Shown one piece after another: positions 2 through 10,991 of a stretch of 11,009 nucleotides of DNA; the first letter of the stretch is position 1, and each line of letters starts with the position of its first letter. The notes under the pieces are model-generated. The model saw only the letters and a program-made list of their open reading frames with translations. It was not told where the DNA came from and made no database searches. This DNA comes from Candidatus Diapherotrites archaeon CG08_land_8_20_14_0_20_30_16 (GTDB taxonomy: Archaea; Iainarchaeota; Iainarchaeia; Iainarchaeales; 0-14-0-20-30-16), in the NCBI GenBank assembly GCA_002779075.1, contig PEXK01000051.1:1-11009 (forward strand), in the 5' to 3' direction. The position numbers were made by a program, and so were the translations under genes.

Positions 2-868
2 ATGCTTCAAATCTTTTTCTCCTATTCTATTTCATTCATTATTGCAATATGGTTGTTTCTGTTGTTCAAAGCCAGCAATGTAGCTATTGAGACTATTGCC
101 CCACCAAATAGCATTTGGAATACAGTTTATTTCTTTGGTTTGATTATTGTTGAAACTATTATTTTGATTGTTTTATTGCGAATATTCTGGAAAATAAACT
201 TCATTAAAATAATTGATATTTTAGTTTGTCTTGTTTGTGTTTTCAGTATTGCCTCTTTTTTCTTTGAATTTTGGTTTATGTCACTGTTAATTTCGTTTCT
301 TGTAGTTCTTGTAAAAGAACTAAGTGGCTGGGTTTGGTTCAAAAATGCAATTGTATTTTTGGTTGTAGGATTCTTTTCAGCGTACATAGGTTACACTTTG
401 GGAATCTGCCCTATATTTTTATTGCTGGTTTTAATTGCAATATATGATTATATTGCTGTTTTCAAAACAAAGCATATGGTTTTTTTAGCAGACAAAATCA
501 TCAATAAAAATACACTATTTGTTATGGATTTCCACAGTTCTTTCTTTAATAAAGAAAGAAACAAAGAACAAATAACACAAAATGTAAATACAGAAATAAA
601 ACAAAAAGAATTAGATCCTAGCAAAAGAAATCATTTACATTTAGGAACTGGGGATTTTGCTTTGCCTTTAATAGGTGTAATGACATTATTTGCAGCAAAC
701 TGGATATTTGGGTTGGTTAGTTTTGTTGTTGTTTTATTTGGTTTGGAATTAACAGTATATTTGCTTTTCACAAAGAAGCATTATGCTTTGCCTGCAATTC
801 CTTTACAAGTGATTTGTTTTGCAGGAGTATATTTAATTTATTTGTTGTATACTTTGTTATATACTTAA
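2..868 (+). CDS. Presenilin / signal-peptide-peptidase-like GxGD intramembrane aspartyl protease (archaeal PSH type)
   Basis: 288-aa ORF with about nine hydrophobic segments. It has 'LIAIYDYIAVFKTKHM' (YD motif), 'HLGTGDFALPL' (GxGD motif) and a C-terminal 'YALPAIP' (PAL-like motif), in the order expected for presenilin homologues. The ATG is at position 2, so the start sits at the window edge and could be truncated. Confidence 0.7.
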   Translation: MLQIFFSYSISFIIAIWLFLLFKASNVAIETIAPPNSIWNTVYFFGLIIVETIILIVLLRIFWKINFIKIIDILVCLVCVFSIASFFFEFWFMSLLISFLVVLVKELSGWVWFKNAIVFLVVGFFSAYIGYTLGICPIFLLLVLIAIYDYIAVFKTKHMVFLADKIINKNTLFVMDFHSSFFNKERNKEQITQNVNTEIKQKELDPSKRNHLHLGTGDFALPLIGVMTLFAANWIFGLVSFVVVLFGLELTVYLLFTKKHYALPAIPLQVICFAGVYLIYLLYTLLYT

Positions 869-880
869 TTTGTGATTTAA

Positions 881-1204
881 ATGATTACTAAAGAAATCAA
901 AAGACCAAAAATAAATAAAAGACCTTCAAAAGTGCCTAGAGTGATTAGCGATTTAGAAAGAGACCGAATAAATACACTTTTTGATGTTTCTAAAAAAATT
1001 GCAAAGGTAGCTGTTGAAAATGCTTTAAAATTAAAAGGGTTGCCTTTACGACATAGAGAAGTTGCAATAACTTCAGAACTATTTGCAAAATATCCTAAAT
1101 TACATAAATTACTTGAAAGATTAGATAGAGAGGATCCTGGTTTTTCTAAAAAACTCAGAGAAGCAATTGCAGAAAGAATAAGATTAGAAGCAAAACAGAT
1201 ATAA
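881..1204 (+). CDS. Hypothetical small protein, paralog A: basic K/R/P N-tail plus helical C-domain with P-x13-DP motif
   Basis: 107-aa ORF starting 12 nt after the protease stop, so probably co-transcribed. N-terminal tail is 'KRPKINKRPSKVPR'. The C-terminal 'FAKYPKLHKLLERLDREDPGFSKKLREAIAERI' aligns without gaps to ORFs 1264 and 1669. No known family recognised. Confidence 0.55.
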   Translation: MITKEIKRPKINKRPSKVPRVISDLERDRINTLFDVSKKIAKVAVENALKLKGLPLRHREVAITSELFAKYPKLHKLLERLDREDPGFSKKLREAIAERIRLEAKQI

Positions 1205-1226
1205 TTTAAACTTTCGCATGTATTTT

Positions 1227-1264
1227 ATTGTAAGATTAATTGCGAGATTAATATTGTGAGATTA
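1227..1264 (+). repeat. Three tandem copies of a 12-nt motif ATTGYRAGATTA ending at the start codon of ORF 1264
   Basis: ATTGTAAGATTA (1227-1238), ATTGCGAGATTA (1239-1250), a 2-nt AT spacer, then ATTGTGAGATTA (1253-1264). The last A is the A of the ATG at 1264. The final copy matches the GTGAGATTATG ribosome-binding context also seen before ORF 7306 and, with two extra spacer nt (GTGAGATTATATG), before secE. Confidence 0.6.
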
Positions 1265-1602
1265 TGCCAGTATATAAACCATTAAAACATGAGGAACTCC
1301 ATAGAGAATTAAAAGCAGGAATAAGACCATTAAATGAACTTCATACTTTGAGAGTCAGCCAATTAGCCTATGATCTTTTAGATGGTTTTGATGCTTTTGT
1401 GAAACGATTTACTAAAGCAGATTTTAGTGCTTTGGTTCGTAGGTATGAATCTGAAAGAATCCTTTTAGCTGCATTGAGGTTTAAACTTTTAAGATCTCCT
1501 GAAATTGGACCTTTCTTAATTAAGTTAGCACAAATAGATCCTCAATTATCTGCAAATGCCTTAAATTTAATGGCAAAACACATACTCGAAAAATACAGAT
1601 AA
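1264..1602 (+). CDS. Hypothetical small protein, paralog B: helical, P-x13-DP motif, no basic tail
   Basis: 112-aa ORF. 'LLRSPEIGPFLIKLAQIDPQLSANALNLMAKHI' aligns without gaps to paralogs A and C. GTGAG SD-like element lies 6 nt upstream of the ATG. Confidence 0.55.
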   Translation: MPVYKPLKHEELHRELKAGIRPLNELHTLRVSQLAYDLLDGFDAFVKRFTKADFSALVRRYESERILLAALRFKLLRSPEIGPFLIKLAQIDPQLSANALNLMAKHILEKYR

Positions 1603-1668
1603 TTTTATGTTCTGTATATTTAAATCTTTATATGGTTATTCTATCAACTGTATTTGAGGAATAATTAT

Positions 1669-2001
1669 ATGCCTGAAAAACCACCAAGTAAAAGACCAGG
1701 ACGTAAGCCAAAGCCTTTTGATCAACTGAAACCTGGAGGAATAGCTAATAGATTTATGAAAACTCATTCTGCAAAAATGTCAGAATTAAAGAGTTCAATT
1801 ATTGATGATATTGGAAATGGTAAAATTAAGTCTTATACTCAAGCAACAGGAGTATTAATTGCAAGAATTAAAAACGATCCACAGATAAAAGCAGATTTAA
1901 ATAATTTGAAGACAAATAATCCAGATGCATACAATTATGTTATGAAGCTAATATCAATGTGGTTGGGTAGAAACTTTCAAAAACCACAAAATCGAAGTTA
2001 A
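1669..2001 (+). CDS. Hypothetical small protein, paralog C: AT-hook-like basic N-tail, P-x13-NP motif
   Basis: The ATG at 1669 is preceded by GAGGA (1656-1660) with an 8-nt spacer, so I prefer it to the track's TTG at 1654. N-tail is 'PEKPPSKRPGRKPKP'. 'IKNDPQIKADLNNLKTNNPDAYNYVMKLISMWL' aligns without gaps to A and B. Confidence 0.55.
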   Translation: MPEKPPSKRPGRKPKPFDQLKPGGIANRFMKTHSAKMSELKSSIIDDIGNGKIKSYTQATGVLIARIKNDPQIKADLNNLKTNNPDAYNYVMKLISMWLGRNFQKPQNRS

Positions 2002-2113: not shown

Positions 2114-2836
2114 GTGGTAAAAACAGAAAAAGAATCAAAAGACAATCCTGAAGAGCAAAAGCAAGAAGATGTCTCTAAGCTTAATACTAGTCTGGACTTC
2201 CTTTCTAAAGCAGTTCTTGAAGTCAAAGGATCGAGCAAGAGAAACTTTATCCAAACTGTTGAAGCTGGAATTAACCTAATGGGTATTAACTTTAAACAGC
2301 AAACAAACAGAATAGGCTTTGATGTTATATTACCTCATCCTTTTAAAAAGGCACCAAAGGTTGCTCTTTTTGGAACTACTCCCAACTTTATTACCAGTGT
2401 GAAAGAAGCATTCGATAAGGTTATTACTGGTGAGCAAATACCTACTTTTGATAAGAAATCAGGAAAGAAATTAACAAAAGATTTTGATTTTTTCTTTGCA
2501 GAACCACAAACATTAACTCTTGTGGGCAAGTATTTGGGTCAAACTTTGGCACCAAGGCAAAAAATGCCAAAACCTTGCCCCCCAGACATCAATGCAATTA
2601 AGGCTTTGATAAATGCAAACATAAAAACAGTAACAGTCTCAAACAAAAAAGGGGATGCTTTGCCAGTTTTACATTTTCCTATTGGAAAAGAAGACATGTC
2701 AGAGAAAGATATCACTGAGAATTTTTTAGCTTGTTACACAAAATTAGTTTCTGTTTTACCTGCAAATACACAGAATCTAAAATCAATGTACATTAAAACA
2801 ACAATGGGTCCAATAAAATATATTTTCAAAAGGTAG
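2114..2836 (+). CDS. rpl1: 50S ribosomal protein L1 (uL1)
   Basis: 240 aa. 'RNFIQTVEAGINL', 'ILPHPF', 'GQTLAPRQKMPKP' and 'SMYIKTTMGP' match conserved L1 blocks. GTG start with a perfect AGGAGGT SD. There is a ~22-aa acidic/Lys-rich N-terminal extension relative to typical archaeal L1. Confidence 0.9.
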   Translation: MVKTEKESKDNPEEQKQEDVSKLNTSLDFLSKAVLEVKGSSKRNFIQTVEAGINLMGINFKQQTNRIGFDVILPHPFKKAPKVALFGTTPNFITSVKEAFDKVITGEQIPTFDKKSGKKLTKDFDFFFAEPQTLTLVGKYLGQTLAPRQKMPKPCPPDINAIKALINANIKTVTVSNKKGDALPVLHFPIGKEDMSEKDITENFLACYTKLVSVLPANTQNLKSMYIKTTMGPIKYIFKR

Positions 2837-2843
2837 ATTAACA

Positions 2844-3701
2844 ATGACTAAAGTAGAAACAAAAAAACACTTCAAGAAATGGAAAGAATCAGAAAGATCT
2901 ACTTTTGAAAGTGCTCTTGAAAAAAGCAATTACATTTTAATTGGTAATTTAAGTGAATTACCTGCAAAAGCAGAAAGAGAATTCAGGGACTGTTTAAAAA
3001 AAGCTGGCTGTTTCACAAAAGTAATGAATTCTAAAGTAGCATTAAGAGGCCTTCACAGTAAAGGAATTACTGAATTGGATTCTCAATTAAAAGGTCCTAC
3101 TTTGTTTGCTTTATCCAATGAAAGTCCATTCAAACTTTACAAGGAAATTAAAAAGAATGCATCAAGTTCTTTTGCAAAGGACGGTTGCATTGCTCCAGAG
3201 GATATTTATGTAAATGAAGGAGATACAGGAATACCTCCAGGACCAGCATTAACAGATTTTAAAGTAGCACATATTGATACTCAAATAAGAAATGGGAAAA
3301 TATACATTTCAAAAAAGACATTAGTTGTTTCTAAAGGATCAAAGATAGATGCAAAAATCGCAACTTTATTAACAAAATTAAAGATTAAGCCTATGAAAAT
3401 TTTATTGAATGTTAAAACAGTTTTTGATAAAGCAACAAAGACATTATACAAAAAAGATTTATTGGATATAAATGCTGAACAATTAATTGTTCAGATTAAA
3501 GAAGGTTATCTAAGGTGTTATTACTTAGCAATAGGTAAAGGATACGTTTCTAAGCAAACAATTAAGCCTTTATTAATTAAAGGATACAAAAGTTCAAAAG
3601 CAGTAGCTCTTGCTGGCAACGTTGTCAACAAGGACACAGCTAAACAAATATTAGGCAAGGCCCAGAGAATTGCAAATGCTTTGGGCAAAAAGGTTATTTA
3701 G
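2844..3701 (+). CDS. rplP0: Ribosomal stalk protein P0 (uL10), without the C-terminal acidic tail
   Basis: 285 aa. It has an N-terminal 'KKWKE' block, 'GDTGIPPGPALTDF', and C-terminal spine-helix repeats ('GYVSKQTIKPLLIKGY', 'NVVNKDTAKQILGKAQRIANAL') typical of archaeal P0. It sits between L1 and L12. Confidence 0.85.
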   Translation: MTKVETKKHFKKWKESERSTFESALEKSNYILIGNLSELPAKAEREFRDCLKKAGCFTKVMNSKVALRGLHSKGITELDSQLKGPTLFALSNESPFKLYKEIKKNASSSFAKDGCIAPEDIYVNEGDTGIPPGPALTDFKVAHIDTQIRNGKIYISKKTLVVSKGSKIDAKIATLLTKLKIKPMKILLNVKTVFDKATKTLYKKDLLDINAEQLIVQIKEGYLRCYYLAIGKGYVSKQTIKPLLIKGYKSSKAVALAGNVVNKDTAKQILGKAQRIANALGKKVI

Positions 3702-3721
3702 ATTTATAGGTGGTGAAAATA

Positions 3722-4021
3722 ATGGAATATATCTATGCTGCTATGTTATTAAATAGTGCAAAGAAAGAAATTAATGAAGCAAATATTAGTGGTATAATTA
3801 AGGCTGCTGGCTTGCAAATCGATGCTCCTAAAATAAAGTCTTTAGTTGAAGCATTAAAGGATGTTGATTTTGAGGCTGTAATCAAAGAAGCATCAATTGT
3901 TCAAATAGCAAGTGCTCCTGCACCAAGTGCAAGCACAGCTCCTGTAGCACCTAAAGAAGAAAAGAAAAAAGAAAAAACAGTTGAAGAAGCTTCTGCTGGT
4001 TTGGGCGCTTTGTTCGGCTAA
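3722..4021 (+). CDS. rpl12: Ribosomal stalk protein P1 / L12 (aP1)
   Basis: 'MEYIYAAMLL' N-terminus, an Ala/Pro hinge, a Lys/Glu block and the canonical 'GLGALFG' C-terminus. The ATG at 3722 is preceded by GGTGGTGA (3709-3716), so I prefer it to the track's GTG at 3710. Confidence 0.9.
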   Translation: MEYIYAAMLLNSAKKEINEANISGIIKAAGLQIDAPKIKSLVEALKDVDFEAVIKEASIVQIASAPAPSASTAPVAPKEEKKKEKTVEEASAGLGALFG

Positions 4022-4256: not shown

Positions 4257-4526
4257 ATGTTTCAACAAATTATTTCTGATGATATTGAGAAAATATTTTA
4301 AAAAGGCAAAAATCAAGAATTAATTAATGCAACTATTAGAAAGATTGAAGAAATTTGTAATCAAGATATTGAAACAATAAAGCATTATAAAAATTTAGGT
4401 AATGTAATGTCAGATTATAAACGAGTTCACATACTAAAAAGTTTTGTATTAACATTTAAAGTAGATATATCAAATAATGTTATTTATTTTGTAAAATTAA
4501 CTCATCATGATGATGCTTATAATTAA
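4257..4526 (+). pseudogene. RelE/ParE-family type II toxin pseudogene (in-frame TAA at codon 15)
   Basis: A single frame reads MFQQIISDDIEKIF*KGKNQELINATIRKIEEICNQDIETIKHYKNLGNVMSDYKRVHILKSFVLTFKVDISNNVIYFVKLTHHDDAYN*. The length (~89 codons) and the C-terminal pattern (beta-strands ending '..I.I..I.H....Y') fit RelE/ParE. The internal TAA is at 4299-4301, and no restart codon follows until Met at 4407. It was not in the ORF track. Confidence 0.55.
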
Positions 4527-4529
4527 TAT

Positions 4530-4913
4530 TTATTTAATAATTTCTAAATGCATACTTTTGCAGGTGCCTTCTAATTCTTTTATTTTCTTTGACAACTCTT
4601 GCAGATTATTTTGTTCTATTGATTTTTTTGCTAATGCAAATAAATCTGAATAATTTATTTTTCCATTTTTAACAAAAGCTTTGATTTGCTCGGTTGTTTT
4701 CTTTTGCGCCTGTACAATTTTCCAGGTTCTATTTTCCATATTTATTTCAATAGGCACTTTGGAGTTTATTGCAATTAAGCCTTGCTCAAGCATTTTGTTT
4801 AAAGCATCAACAACTTTATTGATGTTAACACCATATGGTGCTAATAGGGGCCCTAAAGGCGAACCACAATCTAGTTTTTCTTTTTTAAGGGATAGCTCTA
4901 AAACAATATTCAT
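4530..4913 (-). CDS. rpl11: 50S ribosomal protein L11 (uL11), short divergent form
   Basis: 127 aa. 'GSPLGPLLAPYGVNINKVVDALN' matches the L11 'PGPPLGPALGPxGVN' N-domain block. 'VPIEINMENRTWKI' and the C-terminal 'ELEGTCKSMHLEI' match the 'GTxxSMG' block. It is about 30 aa shorter than typical archaeal L11. Confidence 0.8.
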   Translation of the reverse strand: MNIVLELSLKKEKLDCGSPLGPLLAPYGVNINKVVDALNKMLEQGLIAINSKVPIEINMENRTWKIVQAQKKTTEQIKAFVKNGKINYSDLFALAKKSIEQNNLQELSKKIKELEGTCKSMHLEIIK

Positions 4914-4964
4914 AAGAAAATAAGAAAAGTAAGAAATAAAAAGATTTAGGTATTATAAATAAAT

Positions 4965-5324
4965 ATGGGAAAACCAAATAAACCTCGAGAACCTAGGAAA
5001 CCTAAAGAAGAAACAAGAGTCCATTTATTAAATGATTATAAACAAAGAAAAGATCCAAAAACAAATGTCTTGGTAATATTGTGTGAGAAGAAAAGTCTTG
5101 AAGAAAAACAGGAGTCTATTATGGCTTATTGTGGAGCTAAAGGCCTGGGTCCAAAAAATGTTCTTGATCTGTTAACAGAAATAGGAAAGGAAATACCTGA
5201 CAGAATCAGACAGATGATGGCTGAAAATCCAAGAAAAAATAAAGTAAAAATATCAAAACTTATAGGACTGCTGTTTGTAATTAGGATGTTAAAAAGAAAC
5301 ATAAGAGAAGTATATTCTCTCTAA
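4965..5324 (+). CDS. Hypothetical small protein D: K/R/P-rich N-tail, possible distant relative of paralogs A-C
   Basis: 119-aa ORF and the only long ORF in this 410-bp interval. N-tail is 'GKPNKPREPRKPKEE'. 'EIPDRIRQMMAENPRKNKVKISKLIGLL' resembles the P...NP motif of A-C but with a spacing 4 residues shorter. A TATA-like TATTATAAATAAAT lies just upstream. Confidence 0.45.
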   Translation: MGKPNKPREPRKPKEETRVHLLNDYKQRKDPKTNVLVILCEKKSLEEKQESIMAYCGAKGLGPKNVLDLLTEIGKEIPDRIRQMMAENPRKNKVKISKLIGLLFVIRMLKRNIREVYSL

Positions 5325-5325
5325 T

Positions 5326-5760
5326 TTACTCTTGATACAACTTAACTGTTTCTGCTTTGATTGTGATTGGCATTTTGATTGTTGCATCTAATATTTCAAC
5401 AGTTATCTCTTCTTTTGTGGGATTTACTCTGATTATACGTGCTTTCTCCCCTTTCAAATAACCGCTTTTGATTTCAACAACAGCATCTGGCTTTAGTTTC
5501 TCCATTACACTTTCTAAATGCAATAAAGAATCTAATTCTTTTTCAGAAACATTTCCAACAGTCAAAGAATTTTTTCTAATATAAGGTATGTCGGTAATTG
5601 CTCTCTTCAATGTATTGTCATTGTTAGCTTCAACAATCAAATAGTTCTTAATATTGGGTAGTATAATTATTGAATATAATGGCAAGTCTTTTGCTTTGGT
5701 TTTAAGAATTGCAGATACCAATTCTAATTGACCCGGTACAATCTTTAATGTGAAAATCAT
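5326..5760 (-). CDS. spt5: Transcription elongation factor Spt5 (archaeal NusG)
   Basis: 144 aa with an NGN-like N-domain and a KOW-like 'VVEIKSGYLKGEKARIIRVN' segment. It lies immediately downstream of secE (12-nt gap), as in the conserved secE-nusG pair. GAGGG SD is upstream. Confidence 0.85.
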   Translation of the reverse strand: MIFTLKIVPGQLELVSAILKTKAKDLPLYSIIILPNIKNYLIVEANNDNTLKRAITDIPYIRKNSLTVGNVSEKELDSLLHLESVMEKLKPDAVVEIKSGYLKGEKARIIRVNPTKEEITVEILDATIKMPITIKAETVKLYQE

Positions 5761-5772
5761 TCATATCCCTCA

Positions 5773-5937
5773 TTACAATGGCGAATAAAAAGCAGTCATA
5801 ATCAACATGATTAAAAACCCTAAAACACCAATTAGTATTATTCCTAGACCAACAACTTTTGCTAGGTTCCAGTATTCTTTTCCTGTTGGTTTTTTTGCAA
5901 CCAAAAAAACACGTTTAGTATTTTCCCAAAAAGTCAT
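5773..5937 (-). CDS. secE: Preprotein translocase subunit SecE / Sec61-gamma
   Basis: 54-aa ORF, too short for the ORF track: MTFWENTKRVFLVAKKPTGKEYWNLAKVVGLGIILIGVLGFLIMLIMTAFYSPL. It has an amphipathic basic segment ('RVFLVAKKPTGKEY') followed by one TM helix, and sits before spt5. GTGAG SD is upstream. Confidence 0.8.
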   Translation of the reverse strand: MTFWENTKRVFLVAKKPTGKEYWNLAKVVGLGIILIGVLGFLIMLIMTAFYSPL

Positions 5938-6043
5938 ATAATCTCACTTCTCTTTTATAACCTATTTTTCATCCTTGCAATATATAAACTAAATATGTTT
6001 AATGTGTATCCTCGCAACACATAAAATTGACCTGTTTAATGTA

Positions 6044-7159
6044 CTAGCCGGTATACTTAATATCTAATTCATCATCAAATTCAGAAACTGGTTTTCTTTT
6101 AGACTGTTTCTCAGCATCTAAATATTGGAAGTAACCTCCAACAATTACAACCATTGCTTTTATCTGAGTCTTTGGTATTTCAGGATCAATCATTGCACCA
6201 AAAATAATATGGGATTCAGGATCAATTTTGCTTGCAACAGCTTCAACAACAGTTTGTGCCTCTTTAATTGTCATATCTGCTCCACCAACAACGTTTATCA
6301 AAGCTCTGTTTGCTGTTGATATATTCACATCCAAAAGAGGACTGCTCAATGCATCCTCAGCAGCTTGCAAAGCCCTGGTATCTGGTGCTGCGCCAGGATC
6401 AGATTCTCCTAAACCAATCATTGCTGCTCCACCACTCTTCAAAATAGTTTTCAAATCAGCAAAATCTAAATTAATCAAACCGACTTTAATAATCATATCT
6501 GTTATTCCCTTTACTGCATTTGCCAGAACCTCATCAGCGACTTTGAATGCTGCGTCTAAAGGTAAATCTGGTGCTATTTCTAATATTTTATCATTTGGGA
6601 TAACAATTACAGTATCAACACTTTTTCTAAGTTTGGTTAAACCATCTAATGCGTAATCCATTCTTGTTTTACCCTCTACTGTAAAAGGTAAGGTAACAAC
6701 ACCAACACTTAGGCAGTCTCCTTCTTTTGCAATTTCACAAACCACAGGTGCACTTCCTGTACCTGTTCCGCCACCTAAACCGCAAGTAATAAAAACTAAA
6801 TCAGATTCTTTTATTATCTTTTCAATTTCTCCTTTTGATTCTTTTGCAGCACCTTCTCCAACTGCTGGATCAGAGCCTGCACCTAAACCTTTTGTAAGTT
6901 TCTTTCCCAATAAAACGCGCTTATCGCAATCTAAATGAGCTAAAGCTTGAGCATCAGTGTTCAATCCTATTAAAACTGTTCCTGTAATACTCATTTCCTT
7001 TAATCTAACAATAGTATTACCACCAGCACCACCAGCACCAATTACTACTATTCTAGGTTTTGCATTTTCCAAAACAGACAATAAATCTTTATCTGGCTCT
7101 ATTTGCTTTTTCTCGCCATTTACAGCACTATTTGTAGCAATTCTAATAAGTGATCTCAT
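6044..7159 (-). CDS. ftsZ: Cell division GTPase FtsZ
   Basis: 'VIGAGGAGGN', the tubulin signature 'GLGGGTGTGSAP', and 'NLDFADL'. The ATG at 7159 is preceded by GGGGGAT, so I prefer it to the track's TTG at 7174. Confidence 0.95.
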   Translation of the reverse strand: MRSLIRIATNSAVNGEKKQIEPDKDLLSVLENAKPRIVVIGAGGAGGNTIVRLKEMSITGTVLIGLNTDAQALAHLDCDKRVLLGKKLTKGLGAGSDPAVGEGAAKESKGEIEKIIKESDLVFITCGLGGGTGTGSAPVVCEIAKEGDCLSVGVVTLPFTVEGKTRMDYALDGLTKLRKSVDTVIVIPNDKILEIAPDLPLDAAFKVADEVLANAVKGITDMIIKVGLINLDFADLKTILKSGGAAMIGLGESDPGAAPDTRALQAAEDALSSPLLDVNISTANRALINVVGGADMTIKEAQTVVEAVASKIDPESHIIFGAMIDPEIPKTQIKAMVVIVGGYFQYLDAEKQSKRKPVSEFDDELDIKYTG

Positions 7160-7174
7160 GAATATCCCCCACAA

Positions 7175-8974: not shown

Positions 8975-10483
8975 ATGTTGAAACCTGTGAATATTGATTT
9001 GGAAACTGGAATTTCTGTTTGTATAATAAATGAATCTGATGCAAAAAAACTAGGAGTAGAAAGAGATGACCGTTTAATATTAACTAATCCCAGTAATAGA
9101 CTGTTTGTTGCAGCAGTTGTTGATTTAGCAAAGGATATTGTAAAATCAGGAGAAATAGGAATATCGTCTTCTATAAAACAGGAAATTGAATTGGAGTCGT
9201 CGAATACAATAGAAGTTACAAGAGCAGAAAAACCAGAAAGCTTTCAATATATAATAAAGAAAATTAATAATCAAGCACTAAATTTTGATGAAATTAAGCA
9301 ATTGGTAGAAGACATCAGACACAATAAATTGTCAGTTATAGAATTAACTGCATATATGACAGCAGTAAAAATAAATGGCTATAACATTGATGAAATATAT
9401 GCAATGGCAAAAAACATGTCAGACAATGGCAAGAAACTAAATCTGAATGTAGATGGTACAATAGTAGACAAACACAGTATTGGTGGAATAAATGGAAGAG
9501 CAACAATGATTATTGTTCCAATAGTTTCATGCTTTGATGAATTATATATTCCAAAAACAAGTTCTCGTGCAATAACAAGTTCATCAGGCACTGCAGATTC
9601 AATGGAAGTCTTGGCAAATGTAAACATAAACTCTGAACAATTACAAACTGTTGTTGAAAAATGTCATGGTGCAATGGTTTGGGGCGGAGCATTTGAGTTT
9701 GCTCCTGTTGATGATAAAATAATTAAAATAGAAAGACCTTTACAAATGGATCCTCAAGGACAGGTTATTGCATCTGTTTTGTCAAAAAAGCTTTCTGTAG
9801 GTGCAAGAAAAGTAATTGTTGATGTACCTATGGGAAAAGATACAAAAGTAAAGAATTTGGTTGAAGCAGAAGATTTGTCAGGGAAGTTTGTTGCAACAGG
9901 AAAAAAACTAGGAATGGAAATAAGAGCAGTTATAACAGACGCTAGCACACCTTGTGGAAATACTTTTGGACCTGCTTTAGAGGCTCGTTCTGTTTTAGAG
10001 ATTCTAGAAGGCAAAACATATGATAATTTAGCAGAAAAGGCCTGTGAATTAGCAGGAGAATTATTAGAAATGTGTAATGTTGTTGAAAGAGGGCAAGGAT
10101 ACACAAAATCAAGAGAAATTCTAAAAAATGGAAGGGCATTAAAGAAAATGAAACAAATTATTGAAACGCAAGGAAAGAAATTTGATTCCTCAGACAAAGT
10201 TCCTATTGGCGAATTTCATGAAGATGTTTTTTCAACAAAGCAAGGTTATGTAAGAGATATAGGTATTGCAAATTTCACTCAAATAGCATTGGCTTCTGGT
10301 GCACCATTTGACAAAGGTAGTGGTGTTATGTTAATGCAAAAACAAAACAACAGTGTTGACAAAGGTGATCTCTTATTCAAAATCTTTGCAGACAACAAAG
10401 ACAAATTAAATTATGCAACAAATCTTGCAAAGAAAATAGAACCTGTTAAAGTTGACCAAATCATATTGGAAGAAATAAATTGA
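8975..10483 (+). CDS. deoA: AMP phosphorylase (thymidine-phosphorylase family with N-terminal extension domain, archaeal DeoA type)
   Basis: 502 aa from the ATG at 8975 (the track's TTG is at 8972). Blocks include 'DKHSIGGINGRATMIIVPIV', 'IPKTSSRAITSSSGTADSMEVLA', 'VWGGAFEFAPVDDKIIKIERPLQMDP' and 'GPALEARSVLEIL'. An ~85-aa N-terminal domain ('ISVCIINESDAKKLGVERDDRL') distinguishes AMP phosphorylases from plain thymidine phosphorylases. Confidence 0.85.
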   Translation: MLKPVNIDLETGISVCIINESDAKKLGVERDDRLILTNPSNRLFVAAVVDLAKDIVKSGEIGISSSIKQEIELESSNTIEVTRAEKPESFQYIIKKINNQALNFDEIKQLVEDIRHNKLSVIELTAYMTAVKINGYNIDEIYAMAKNMSDNGKKLNLNVDGTIVDKHSIGGINGRATMIIVPIVSCFDELYIPKTSSRAITSSSGTADSMEVLANVNINSEQLQTVVEKCHGAMVWGGAFEFAPVDDKIIKIERPLQMDPQGQVIASVLSKKLSVGARKVIVDVPMGKDTKVKNLVEAEDLSGKFVATGKKLGMEIRAVITDASTPCGNTFGPALEARSVLEILEGKTYDNLAEKACELAGELLEMCNVVERGQGYTKSREILKNGRALKKMKQIIETQGKKFDSSDKVPIGEFHEDVFSTKQGYVRDIGIANFTQIALASGAPFDKGSGVMLMQKQNNSVDKGDLLFKIFADNKDKLNYATNLAKKIEPVKVDQIILEEIN

Positions 10484-10488
10484 GAAAT

Positions 10489-10740
10489 ATGACTGGAGAA
10501 AATGCATTGGTTGTTTTTCAAGACAAAAAGATTAGAAGAATTTGGCACAATGATGAATGGTGCTTTGTTTTAGATGATATTATTGTTGCATTAACCGAAT
10601 CTAAAGATCCTAAACAATATATTAAAAGAGTTAGATCAAGAGATCCGATATTATCGCAAGGATGGGTACAGATTGTACCTACCCTTTTAGTTGATACTCC
10701 TGGAGGAAAACAAAAAATGAATTGTGTCAATAAAATGTAA
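10489..10740 (+). CDS. Bro-N domain protein, N-terminal fragment (DinD / antirepressor-like)
   Basis: 'VVFQDKKIRRIWHNDEWCFVLDDIIVALTESKDPKQYIKRVRSRD' matches the widespread Bro-N 'FxxxxIRxxxxxxEpWFxxxDvxxxL' opening. The ORF stops after 'GGKQKMNCVNKM', where full-length homologues continue. I prefer the ATG at 10489 to the TTG at 10480. Confidence 0.6.
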   Translation: MTGENALVVFQDKKIRRIWHNDEWCFVLDDIIVALTESKDPKQYIKRVRSRDPILSQGWVQIVPTLLVDTPGGKQKMNCVNKM

Positions 10741-10754
10741 ATCTAAGAGATCAT

Positions 10755-10991
10755 ATGAATGATTTAGAATTAATATTTACAATGTTAAGTGAGAAAGTAT
10801 CTACTGAAATTACTAAAAAAGAAGATGCTCAAAGATTCCCAAAATGTAAAGATGCAGCAAAACGTGGTGGAAAAGTTGCAGGTAATGCAAGAAAAGAAAC
10901 AGAAAAGGAAATAGGTAGACCTATATCATCTAATGAAAATTATTTAAAGAATACAGAAAAAGACAAGAAAAAGCAAGTGATAAAAAAGTGA
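10755..10991 (+). CDS. C-terminal fragment of the same Bro-N/DinD-like gene family
   Basis: 'MNDLELIFTMLSEKVSTEITKKED...AAKRGGKVAGNARKETEKEIGRPISSNENYL' matches my recollection of the conserved C-terminal tail of long Bro-N/DinD-like proteins. It starts only 14 nt after the preceding fragment. Confidence 0.5.
   Translation: MNDLELIFTMLSEKVSTEITKKEDAQRFPKCKDAAKRGGKVAGNARKETEKEIGRPISSNENYLKNTEKDKKKQVIKK

Follow-up and report, generated by a model that had tools for sequence, protein, structure and literature searches.

A variable-copy array of genes for small basic proteins of predicted four-helix fold, located upstream of the ribosomal protein L1 gene in a clade of Diapherotrites archaea

Three short open reading frames (ORFs) in tandem separate an intramembrane protease gene from the gene for ribosomal protein L1 in an 11,009-nt stretch of DNA (the window) from Candidatus Diapherotrites archaeon CG08_land_8_20_14_0_20_30_16, a DPANN archaeon (contig PEXK01000051.1; low-GC archaeal DNA, ~30% GC). 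They raise the question of what these genes, here called A, B and C, encode, and whether their place beside ribosomal genes says anything about their role. An earlier note, made from the letters of the window, had taken them for paralogs of an unrecognised family with a ribosome-, RNA- or chromatin-associated role. Our best explanation, which we hold tentatively, is that they form a clade-restricted array of variable copy number whose products are small basic four-helix proteins that may bind polyanions.

The three paralogs, their relatives and their predicted fold

The three consecutive ORFs that had been reported at 881–2001 are present there, all on the plus strand. Gene A (A-type, 881–1204) encodes 107 residues with an isoelectric point (pI) of 10.3 and a net charge of +13, gene B (B-type, 1264–1602) encodes 112 residues with a pI of 9.8, and gene C (C-type, 1669–2001) encodes 110 residues from the ATG at 1669, again with a pI of 10.3 and a net charge of +13. 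In C, the ATG at 1669 is preceded by GAGG, and the TTG at 1654 is merely the mechanical start of the ORF. Independent gene callers returned the same 107, 112 and 110 residues on six more contigs of what is essentially one strain, and at 30% GC reading frames of 104–125 codons have stayed intact in three lineages, although nonsynonymous divergence (dN) amounts to 0.5–0.8, showing at the level of sequence that A, B and C are real coding genes.

Within the window alone, the similarity of A, B and C is weak. The three 33-residue strings on which the paralogy had been proposed occur exactly at residues 68–100 of A (1082–1180), 75–107 of B (1486–1584) and 67–99 of C (1867–1965), with 8, 5 and 6 identities between pairs in the ungapped triple. 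The comparison with shuffled sequences that had been suggested as a control gave a divided result. In Smith–Waterman alignments against 1000 shuffles, A–B (z=0.6) and A–C (z=0.7) scored no better than shuffled sequences, while B–C reached z=6.2 in a register displaced by one helix. The ungapped triple, in contrast, had a sum-of-pairs score of 53, as compared with a mean of 24 (standard deviation 9) for the best triple in 2000 shuffled sets (p=0.0075), and a competing register scored 59 (p=0.001). This ambiguity of register arises because the proteins are internally periodic, successive helices of ~14 residues each opening with x-Pro. No DNA-level repeats connecting the paralogs were found in the window.

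Related loci were retrieved using L1 as the anchor, and the six-frame ORFs of the comparison set (n=5459) were searched for further members. The family now comprises nine known members of 104–125 residues, three in the window, five in locus L007 and one in locus L045. L007 is a Diapherotrites metagenome-assembled genome whose L1 is 70–72% identical to that of the window, and between its protease and L1 genes lie five co-oriented, tightly packed ORFs of 104–125 residues. These are a B-type orthologue (L007 4138–4515; 38% identical to B, phmmer E 1e-16), an A-type orthologue (4515–4868; 42% identical to A), two extra, bridging members (4880–5194 and 5195–5524) and a C-type orthologue (5535–5867; ~30% identical to C, phmmer E 2e-4 to 6e-5). 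In L045, whose L1 is 83% identical, the same slot holds a single A-type copy that is 34% identical to A.

A profile built from nothing but the window's three C-terminal modules found four of the five L007 members and the L045 member at E<1e-3, while its best match outside the family had E=0.63. An iterative A-type profile recruited L007 4880–5194 at E 6e-7; L007 5195–5521 was then its next-best match and was also the top non-self match of the B- and C-type profiles. Alignment of the subtype profiles with hhalign gave one and the same register from all three independent pairs, with P of only 0.05–0.1, and a MAFFT alignment of all nine members recovered the register first proposed. The first helix can be aligned across members as well (+xR[IV]xx[LI]), so the homology covers the whole domain and extends beyond the last 33 residues, even though identity between subtypes is only 10–28%. 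As to the columns that had been listed as conserved, the [DN] position holds in all nine members and one Leu (L78 in A) is invariant, whereas, of the two Pro, the first is found in 7/9 members and the second in only 5/9. The relatives in L007 and L045, together with the profile searches, bear out the proposal of the earlier note, and we regard the paralogy of A, B and C as real.

Outside this clade the searches returned little. Against 5.8 billion protein clusters (word-indexed search), A, B and C matched only themselves or a 96% identical strain variant. When 1.84 billion representatives were searched exhaustively by phmmer with A as the query, the matches were A itself (P0001), the L007 member (P0004), the L045 member (P0006) and P0005, a repetitive 401-residue sequence that was discarded as plainly spurious. 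Nothing above threshold was obtained in Pfam, NCBIfam, PHROGs or PADLOC for A, B, C, their relatives or ORF D (a further small ORF of the window, described below): PHROGs gave matches only at E>=0.12, PADLOC only noise (E 0.01–0.03, about 13 bits at most), and in Pfam A, B and C had no match at E<=1 to STI1/HOP DP and none to Ribosomal_L11_N or Ribosomal_L11. PDB profile searches with the family and with each subtype retrieved only designed helical proteins at E>0.01. Foldseek, run with low- and high-confidence models against PDB and also against BFVD, gave no match at E<0.5 (BFVD, E>=0.6), and neither the scans of IMG/VR with the A- and B-type alignments nor tblastn against the phage collection INPHARED gave any match. 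No tRNA or Rfam family was found in the window. These profile and structure searches agree with the impression that no known family could be recognised, and show, as far as sequence collections reach, a tiny and previously undescribed family that is limited to a small Diapherotrites clade.

To describe the fold, we used an AlphaFold2 model of A, computed from an alignment of four sequences (mean predicted local distance difference 85; predicted template-modelling score 0.68). Residues 1–23 (881–949), a Lys/Arg/Pro-rich arm, are disordered in the model, and residues 24–106 (950–1198) form a four-helix domain with helices at 24–46, 48–51, 56–70, 72–84 and 86–106. The shared C-terminal module corresponds to helices 3 and 4, both of which are N-capped by x-Pro, more precisely by [DNS]-Pro. 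The family architecture is accordingly a disordered Lys/Arg/Pro arm of 20–35 residues followed by a compact domain of ~85 residues, and the model shows a fold class of disordered arm plus four helices. All nine members have a pI of 9.1–10.3 and a net charge of +3 to +13, the arm and the domain each being positive, and the model and the charge together agree with the basic, disordered N-terminal arm on a small helical domain that had been predicted. The maximum of 19-residue hydropathy was 0.1–0.9, and by this measure none of the nine members contains a transmembrane segment or a signal-like hydrophobic stretch. We describe the proteins as soluble, non-enzymatic and strongly basic. The positions conserved throughout the family, the helix caps and the core Leu, have a structural and not a functional character.

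Two DNA-binding motifs that might be read into these sequences were not upheld. The earlier note had seen an AT-hook in 'KRPGRKPKP' of C. This segment of the C arm is rich in Lys, Arg and Pro as an AT-hook is, but it reads P-G-R-K-P and lacks the G-R-P core, and it is not kept in the L007 orthologue, which reads KPKKTEQKLIPKVVSKPKTK at this place. A helix–turn–helix (sigma-70 region-4-like or LuxR-like), suspected by eye in the A-type 'LPLRxRExxI', was dropped, as it found no support in Pfam or Foldseek.

Turnover of the array and the slot beside L1

Among close relatives, the array has 0, 1, 3 or 5 copies. It is absent from L042, L044, L046 and L041: in L046 and L044 the slot between the protease gene and L1 is a gap of 177 nt and 90 nt, respectively, and in L042 it holds instead a gene for a nucleoside 2-deoxyribosyltransferase (PF05014, E 9e-15). 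Gene order differs as well, being A-B-C in the window and B-A-x-x-C in L007. Neighbour-joining trees of L1 place the array-bearing lineages, the window together with L045 on the one hand and L007 on the other, among lineages that lack the array (L046, L042 and L041). Since A-, B- and C-type orthologues are common to the window and L007, their ancestor would have carried three copies or more, and the array would have been lost from several lineages. These comparisons of gene content show an array that is dispensable and variable in copy number, and origin by tandem duplication and divergence within a Diapherotrites subclade, making the family a young one, best explains them.

The array genes also evolve fast. 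Between the window and L007, A, B and C had dN values of 0.52, 0.62 and 0.80, C being the fastest-evolving subtype, as compared with 0.24 for the protease, 0.21 for L1, 0.13 for L10 and 0.12 for L12, so that array dN is 2.5–4 times that of neighbouring genes. The nominal ratio of nonsynonymous to synonymous divergence (dN/dS) was ~0.6–0.85 for A, B and C and 0.11–0.17 for the neighbours. GC content, GC at third codon positions and codon usage of the array are like those of core genes, and neither an integrase nor a tRNA nor repeats flanking it in direct or inverted orientation were found; since viral relatives were lacking too, a recent foreign origin is not indicated. The view that the genes are not random accessory cargo is not supported by these results, in that their turnover and fast evolution make the array look like dispensable accessory cargo.

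At the level of strains, the variant P0001/L083 differs from the window (1168–1252) by 9 substitutions crowded into a 31-nt stretch of A's 3' end, by 4 further substitutions in the spacer between A and B and by a 14-nt deletion (1239–1252), while elsewhere in the 1.2 kb the two are nearly identical. We interpret this cluster at the A|B junction as a local mosaic or recombination tract. Strain-level polymorphisms were too few to compute dN/dS.

To place the array with respect to transcription, we compared its two borders among relatives. Upstream lies a gene for a Presenilin/SPP-type intramembrane protease (2–868, plus strand; Pfam PF06550, E 1.4e-16), which precedes L1 in the window, L007, L042, L044, L045 and L046. 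The array begins 12 nt past the SPP stop codon in the window, and 23 and 47 nt past it in the other array-bearing loci, and this tight spacing suggests that it is probably co-transcribed with SPP and not with L1. Downstream, the array is bounded by the promoter and leader of L1 (2021–2113, plus strand), which are kept in 7/7 relatives with or without the array. They comprise a TATA box, TTTATAAA, at 2021–2028, a GGC..GCC element at 2067–2079, a CTGC-loop-GCAG hairpin at 2085–2102 and, adjoining the hairpin, a Shine–Dalgarno sequence GGAGGT at 2102–2107, before the GTG start of L1 at 2114. L1 itself (2114–2836, plus strand; Pfam PF00687, E 2.7e-41) is not a member of the family. Because the TATA box and leader are conserved irrespective of the array, the array lies outside the L1 transcription unit, and the conserved elements show it as separate from the L1 promoter and the L1-L10-L12 operon.

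The hairpin of the L1 leader has an invariant stem in six relatives, with a loop of 5–10 nt and no covariation. The leader is not in Rfam and is possibly an L1 autoregulatory leader. In L045 (829–1001) a tandem repeat of 72 nt, present in 2.4 copies, interrupts it downstream of the conserved GCCGT element and ahead of the L1 start.

The slot itself has a history of rearrangement. A phmmer search with L11 led to ~53 distant archaeal loci at which Spt5 and L11 immediately precede L1, all being collinear. The window and L042 have the ftsZ-secE-spt5-L11 block (4530–7174 in the window, minus strand) inverted and downstream of L12, on which it converges. The inversion is clade-specific, and the slot between SPP and L1 is its breakpoint. 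The array had been described as occupying the slot where rpl11 normally precedes rpl1. L11 does usually precede L1, but here it is not missing; it lies inverted at 4530–4913 (minus strand; Pfam L11_N and L11, both under gathering scores). Other junctions of the cluster also hold variable cargo: L042 carries a ParE-like toxin–antitoxin pair between L12 and L11 (L042 4090–4652), and the ORFs between L11 and Spt5 are unrelated in the window and L042.

Taken together, these results do not support the ribosome-, RNA- or chromatin-associated role that the earlier note had proposed from location: the slot is a breakpoint, L1 has its own promoter, the array is absent from four relatives, its dN is high and the AT-hook is not upheld. 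The survey of neighbourhoods that it had called for gave a mixed answer, with the array standing beside L1 in all three array-bearing lineages, but within one small clade only. The most conserved information-processing cluster of archaea can evidently harbour fast-turnover, clade-restricted arrays at rearrangement breakpoints, and location next to ribosomal genes is for this reason not evidence of function.

Candidate functions

In the explanation that we tentatively prefer, polyanion binding, the basic arm and the basic helical surface would together hold on to a polyanion, for which nucleic acid (nucleoid DNA or RNA) is the most plausible candidate, a step in which our confidence is low. The paralogs would have diversified surfaces, the array would be transcribed from the SPP side, apart from L1, and the proteins would act as accessory architectural or chaperone-like factors and not as core translation factors. 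This proposal was made because, besides the fold, the sole property kept in all members is that arm and domain are both strongly positive, and only on such grounds of charge is nucleic-acid binding plausible. Sul7d, Cren7 and MC1 are small, basic, clade-confined archaeal nucleoid proteins of abundant type, some of them with several paralogs, and they offer a functional analogy, the array family being likewise small, basic and clade-restricted. They differ in having beta-rich or winged folds, demonstrated DNA binding and strong purifying selection, whereas the array family is all-alpha and weakly constrained and its binding is a proposal.

Several points weigh against polyanion binding. The searches brought up no nucleic-acid-binding fold or motif of a known kind (neither a helix–turn–helix nor an AT-hook, whose core is absent and not conserved), and family-wide conservation is only structural, with no shared binding site visible. 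The proteome is Lys-rich and non-ribosomal neighbours have a pI of 8.4–8.8, so basicity discriminates weakly. High dN/dS and frequent loss are unusual for chromatin or RNA-chaperone proteins, and proteins of conflict or interaction would account for them no less well. As to the evolutionary evidence, dS is near saturation, which makes the dN/dS values rough, and the inference of loss rests on the L1 tree, a single-gene neighbour-joining tree without support values.

The main alternative is that the array encodes fast-diversifying protein-binding adaptors, helical-hairpin modules in the style of TPR or STI1 on a flexible tether, with roles in symbiont–host interaction or of an anti-defence or immunity-like kind, and with an arms race driving the turnover in copy number. 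It would explain rapid evolution and turnover better than polyanion binding does: dN/dS is 0.6–0.85 as against 0.11–0.17 in the neighbours, the copy number varies among 0, 1, 3 and 5 with shuffled gene order, conservation is purely structural while surfaces diverge, and the A|B junction bears the mosaic tract seen between strains. The weak likenesses of the family, moreover, are all to helical-hairpin binders. The STI1/HOP DP domain (PF17830) is likewise a small all-helical module with D/N-P helix caps ~13–14 residues apart, and one of the nine members, L007 5195–5521, matched it weakly (E 0.003, 17.8 bits, under the gathering score of 29.1). The best stretch of that member is N-terminal and outside the shared module, however, no stretch passes alone, and STI1 domains are eukaryotic co-chaperone modules that are not highly basic. 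The L-x-x-L-x-x-x-D-P turn between antiparallel helices resembles the inter-repeat junction of TPR, and the best PDB matches of the family profile were designed TPR-like repeats (E 0.05–0.3, not significant); yet the only match to a Pfam TPR model was to SRP_TPR_like at E 0.09 in one member, there are only four helices, and Foldseek returned no TPR structure. All these likenesses stay under family thresholds, no gene in the vicinity encodes a partner toxin or a defence or secretion function, PADLOC gave no significant match, and the proteins have neither signal peptide nor transmembrane segment. The uniformly high positive charge would also be left unexplained, and we consider adaptors of this kind unlikely.

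A second alternative holds that the genes are leftover cargo of a virus or mobile element integrated at a recombination hot spot. Presence/absence polymorphism, other cargo at the same slot and the ORFan distribution of the family would be in line with it, as would two adjacent ORFs 8.5 kb away at the end of the window (10480–10740 and 10755–10991), which match the N- and C-terminal parts of phrog_15286, the first also matching Bro-N. These ORFs probably represent one anti-repressor-like gene, viral or mobile in origin, that has been split or pseudogenised. The array itself lacks an integrase, a tRNA and flanking repeats, direct or inverted, and has no significant matches in PHROGs, BFVD, IMG/VR or INPHARED; its GC, third-position GC and codon usage are like those of core genes, and orthologous subtypes in lineages whose L1 is 70% identical imply long vertical residence. 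Such an origin seems quite improbable.

The role first proposed, that of a lineage-specific ribosome-, transcription- or chromatin-associated factor tied to the L11/L1/Spt5 cluster, is weakened to the point where we consider it very improbable. The array does adjoin L1-L10-L12 in all three array-bearing lineages, and its basic charge is comparable to that of ribosomal proteins. Among these, uS15 is a basic four-helix rRNA binder of ~85 residues and recurs among low-ranking Foldseek matches (template-modelling scores 0.28–0.49), but at E 4–8 and a probability <=0.2, without sequence similarity, and the array family, in contrast, is dispensable and fast-evolving; membership of the uS15 fold was rejected, no superposition having reached significance (E<1e-3 or a template-modelling score >0.5). 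Against the tie to the cluster stand the promoter and leader of L1 between the array and L1, the absence of the array from sister lineages, with an unrelated enzyme gene in the L042 slot, and an evolutionary rate 2.5–4 times that of the adjacent ribosomal genes. The slot is, in addition, an inversion breakpoint, every junction of the cluster has variable cargo in relatives, and the linkage is seen in only three lineages of one small clade. Finally, the possibility that the resemblance of A, B and C is a chance likeness born of Lys/Leu-rich composition, or that the ORFs are not genes, fits the A–B and A–C alignments that equal shuffles and the modest hhalign P, but it is effectively refuted by the orthologue of every subtype in another genome, the window-only profile that finds another genome's array members and nothing else, the common register of three independent profile pairs, the long ORFs kept at 30% GC and the confident AlphaFold model.

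Although DPANN archaea have small genomes, much of their gene content has no known function, and the family is a well-defined piece of this dark matter. If nucleic acid or host factors turned out to be the ligands of its members, these would make up a new family of small proteins peculiar to one subclade of DPANN, of niche interest. A wider reading would see in them a new DPANN-specific class, either nucleoid or RNA organisers or fast-evolving mediators of symbiont–host or symbiont–virus interaction, and this would amount to a fold family that is new and has a biological role confined to ultra-small archaea; we regard it as possible but doubtful. What the results describe is a new family rather than evidence for a new kind of system, and the confident four-helix model and the nine-member alignment provide a concrete base for testing polyanion binding and its alternatives.

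Neighbouring genes and minor observations

Downstream of L1 on the plus strand follow the genes for L10 and L12 (block 2114–4021), and then an AT-rich spacer of ~500 bp between L12 and L11 (4022–4529), which has ~25% GC and no convincing gene, the only call being a 39-residue ORF at 4407–4526. Between L11 and Spt5 (5326–5760, minus strand) lies ORF D (4965–5324, plus strand; 119 residues, pI 10.0), on the strand opposite to both of its neighbours and with a K/P/E-rich N-terminus, MGKPNKPREPRKPK, like the arms of the family. The same slot in L042 holds an unrelated ORF of 130–143 residues that begins MLEKPKEP and is similarly K/P/E-rich at the N-terminus. Both were considered as distant members and set aside: neither had a hidden Markov model match, hhalign gave P 0.12 for ORF D and 0.05 for the L042 ORF, BLASTP gave E 0.6, and a relationship was not shown. 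Beyond Spt5 come SecE and FtsZ on the minus strand and, further along the window, metabolic genes.

Upstream of SPP, contigs of the same strain (L001, L002 and L004) differ: L004 has an intein-containing MCM gene, as do L042 and L046, while L002 has a fragment of an HsdM methyltransferase gene, and SPP is called at 288 or 300 residues according to this upstream context. L004 also carries a premature stop in L1 (Lys to stop, equivalent to window position 2345), so that L1 is called there as 145 residues; an error of sequencing or assembly could account for this, or else a variant in the population.

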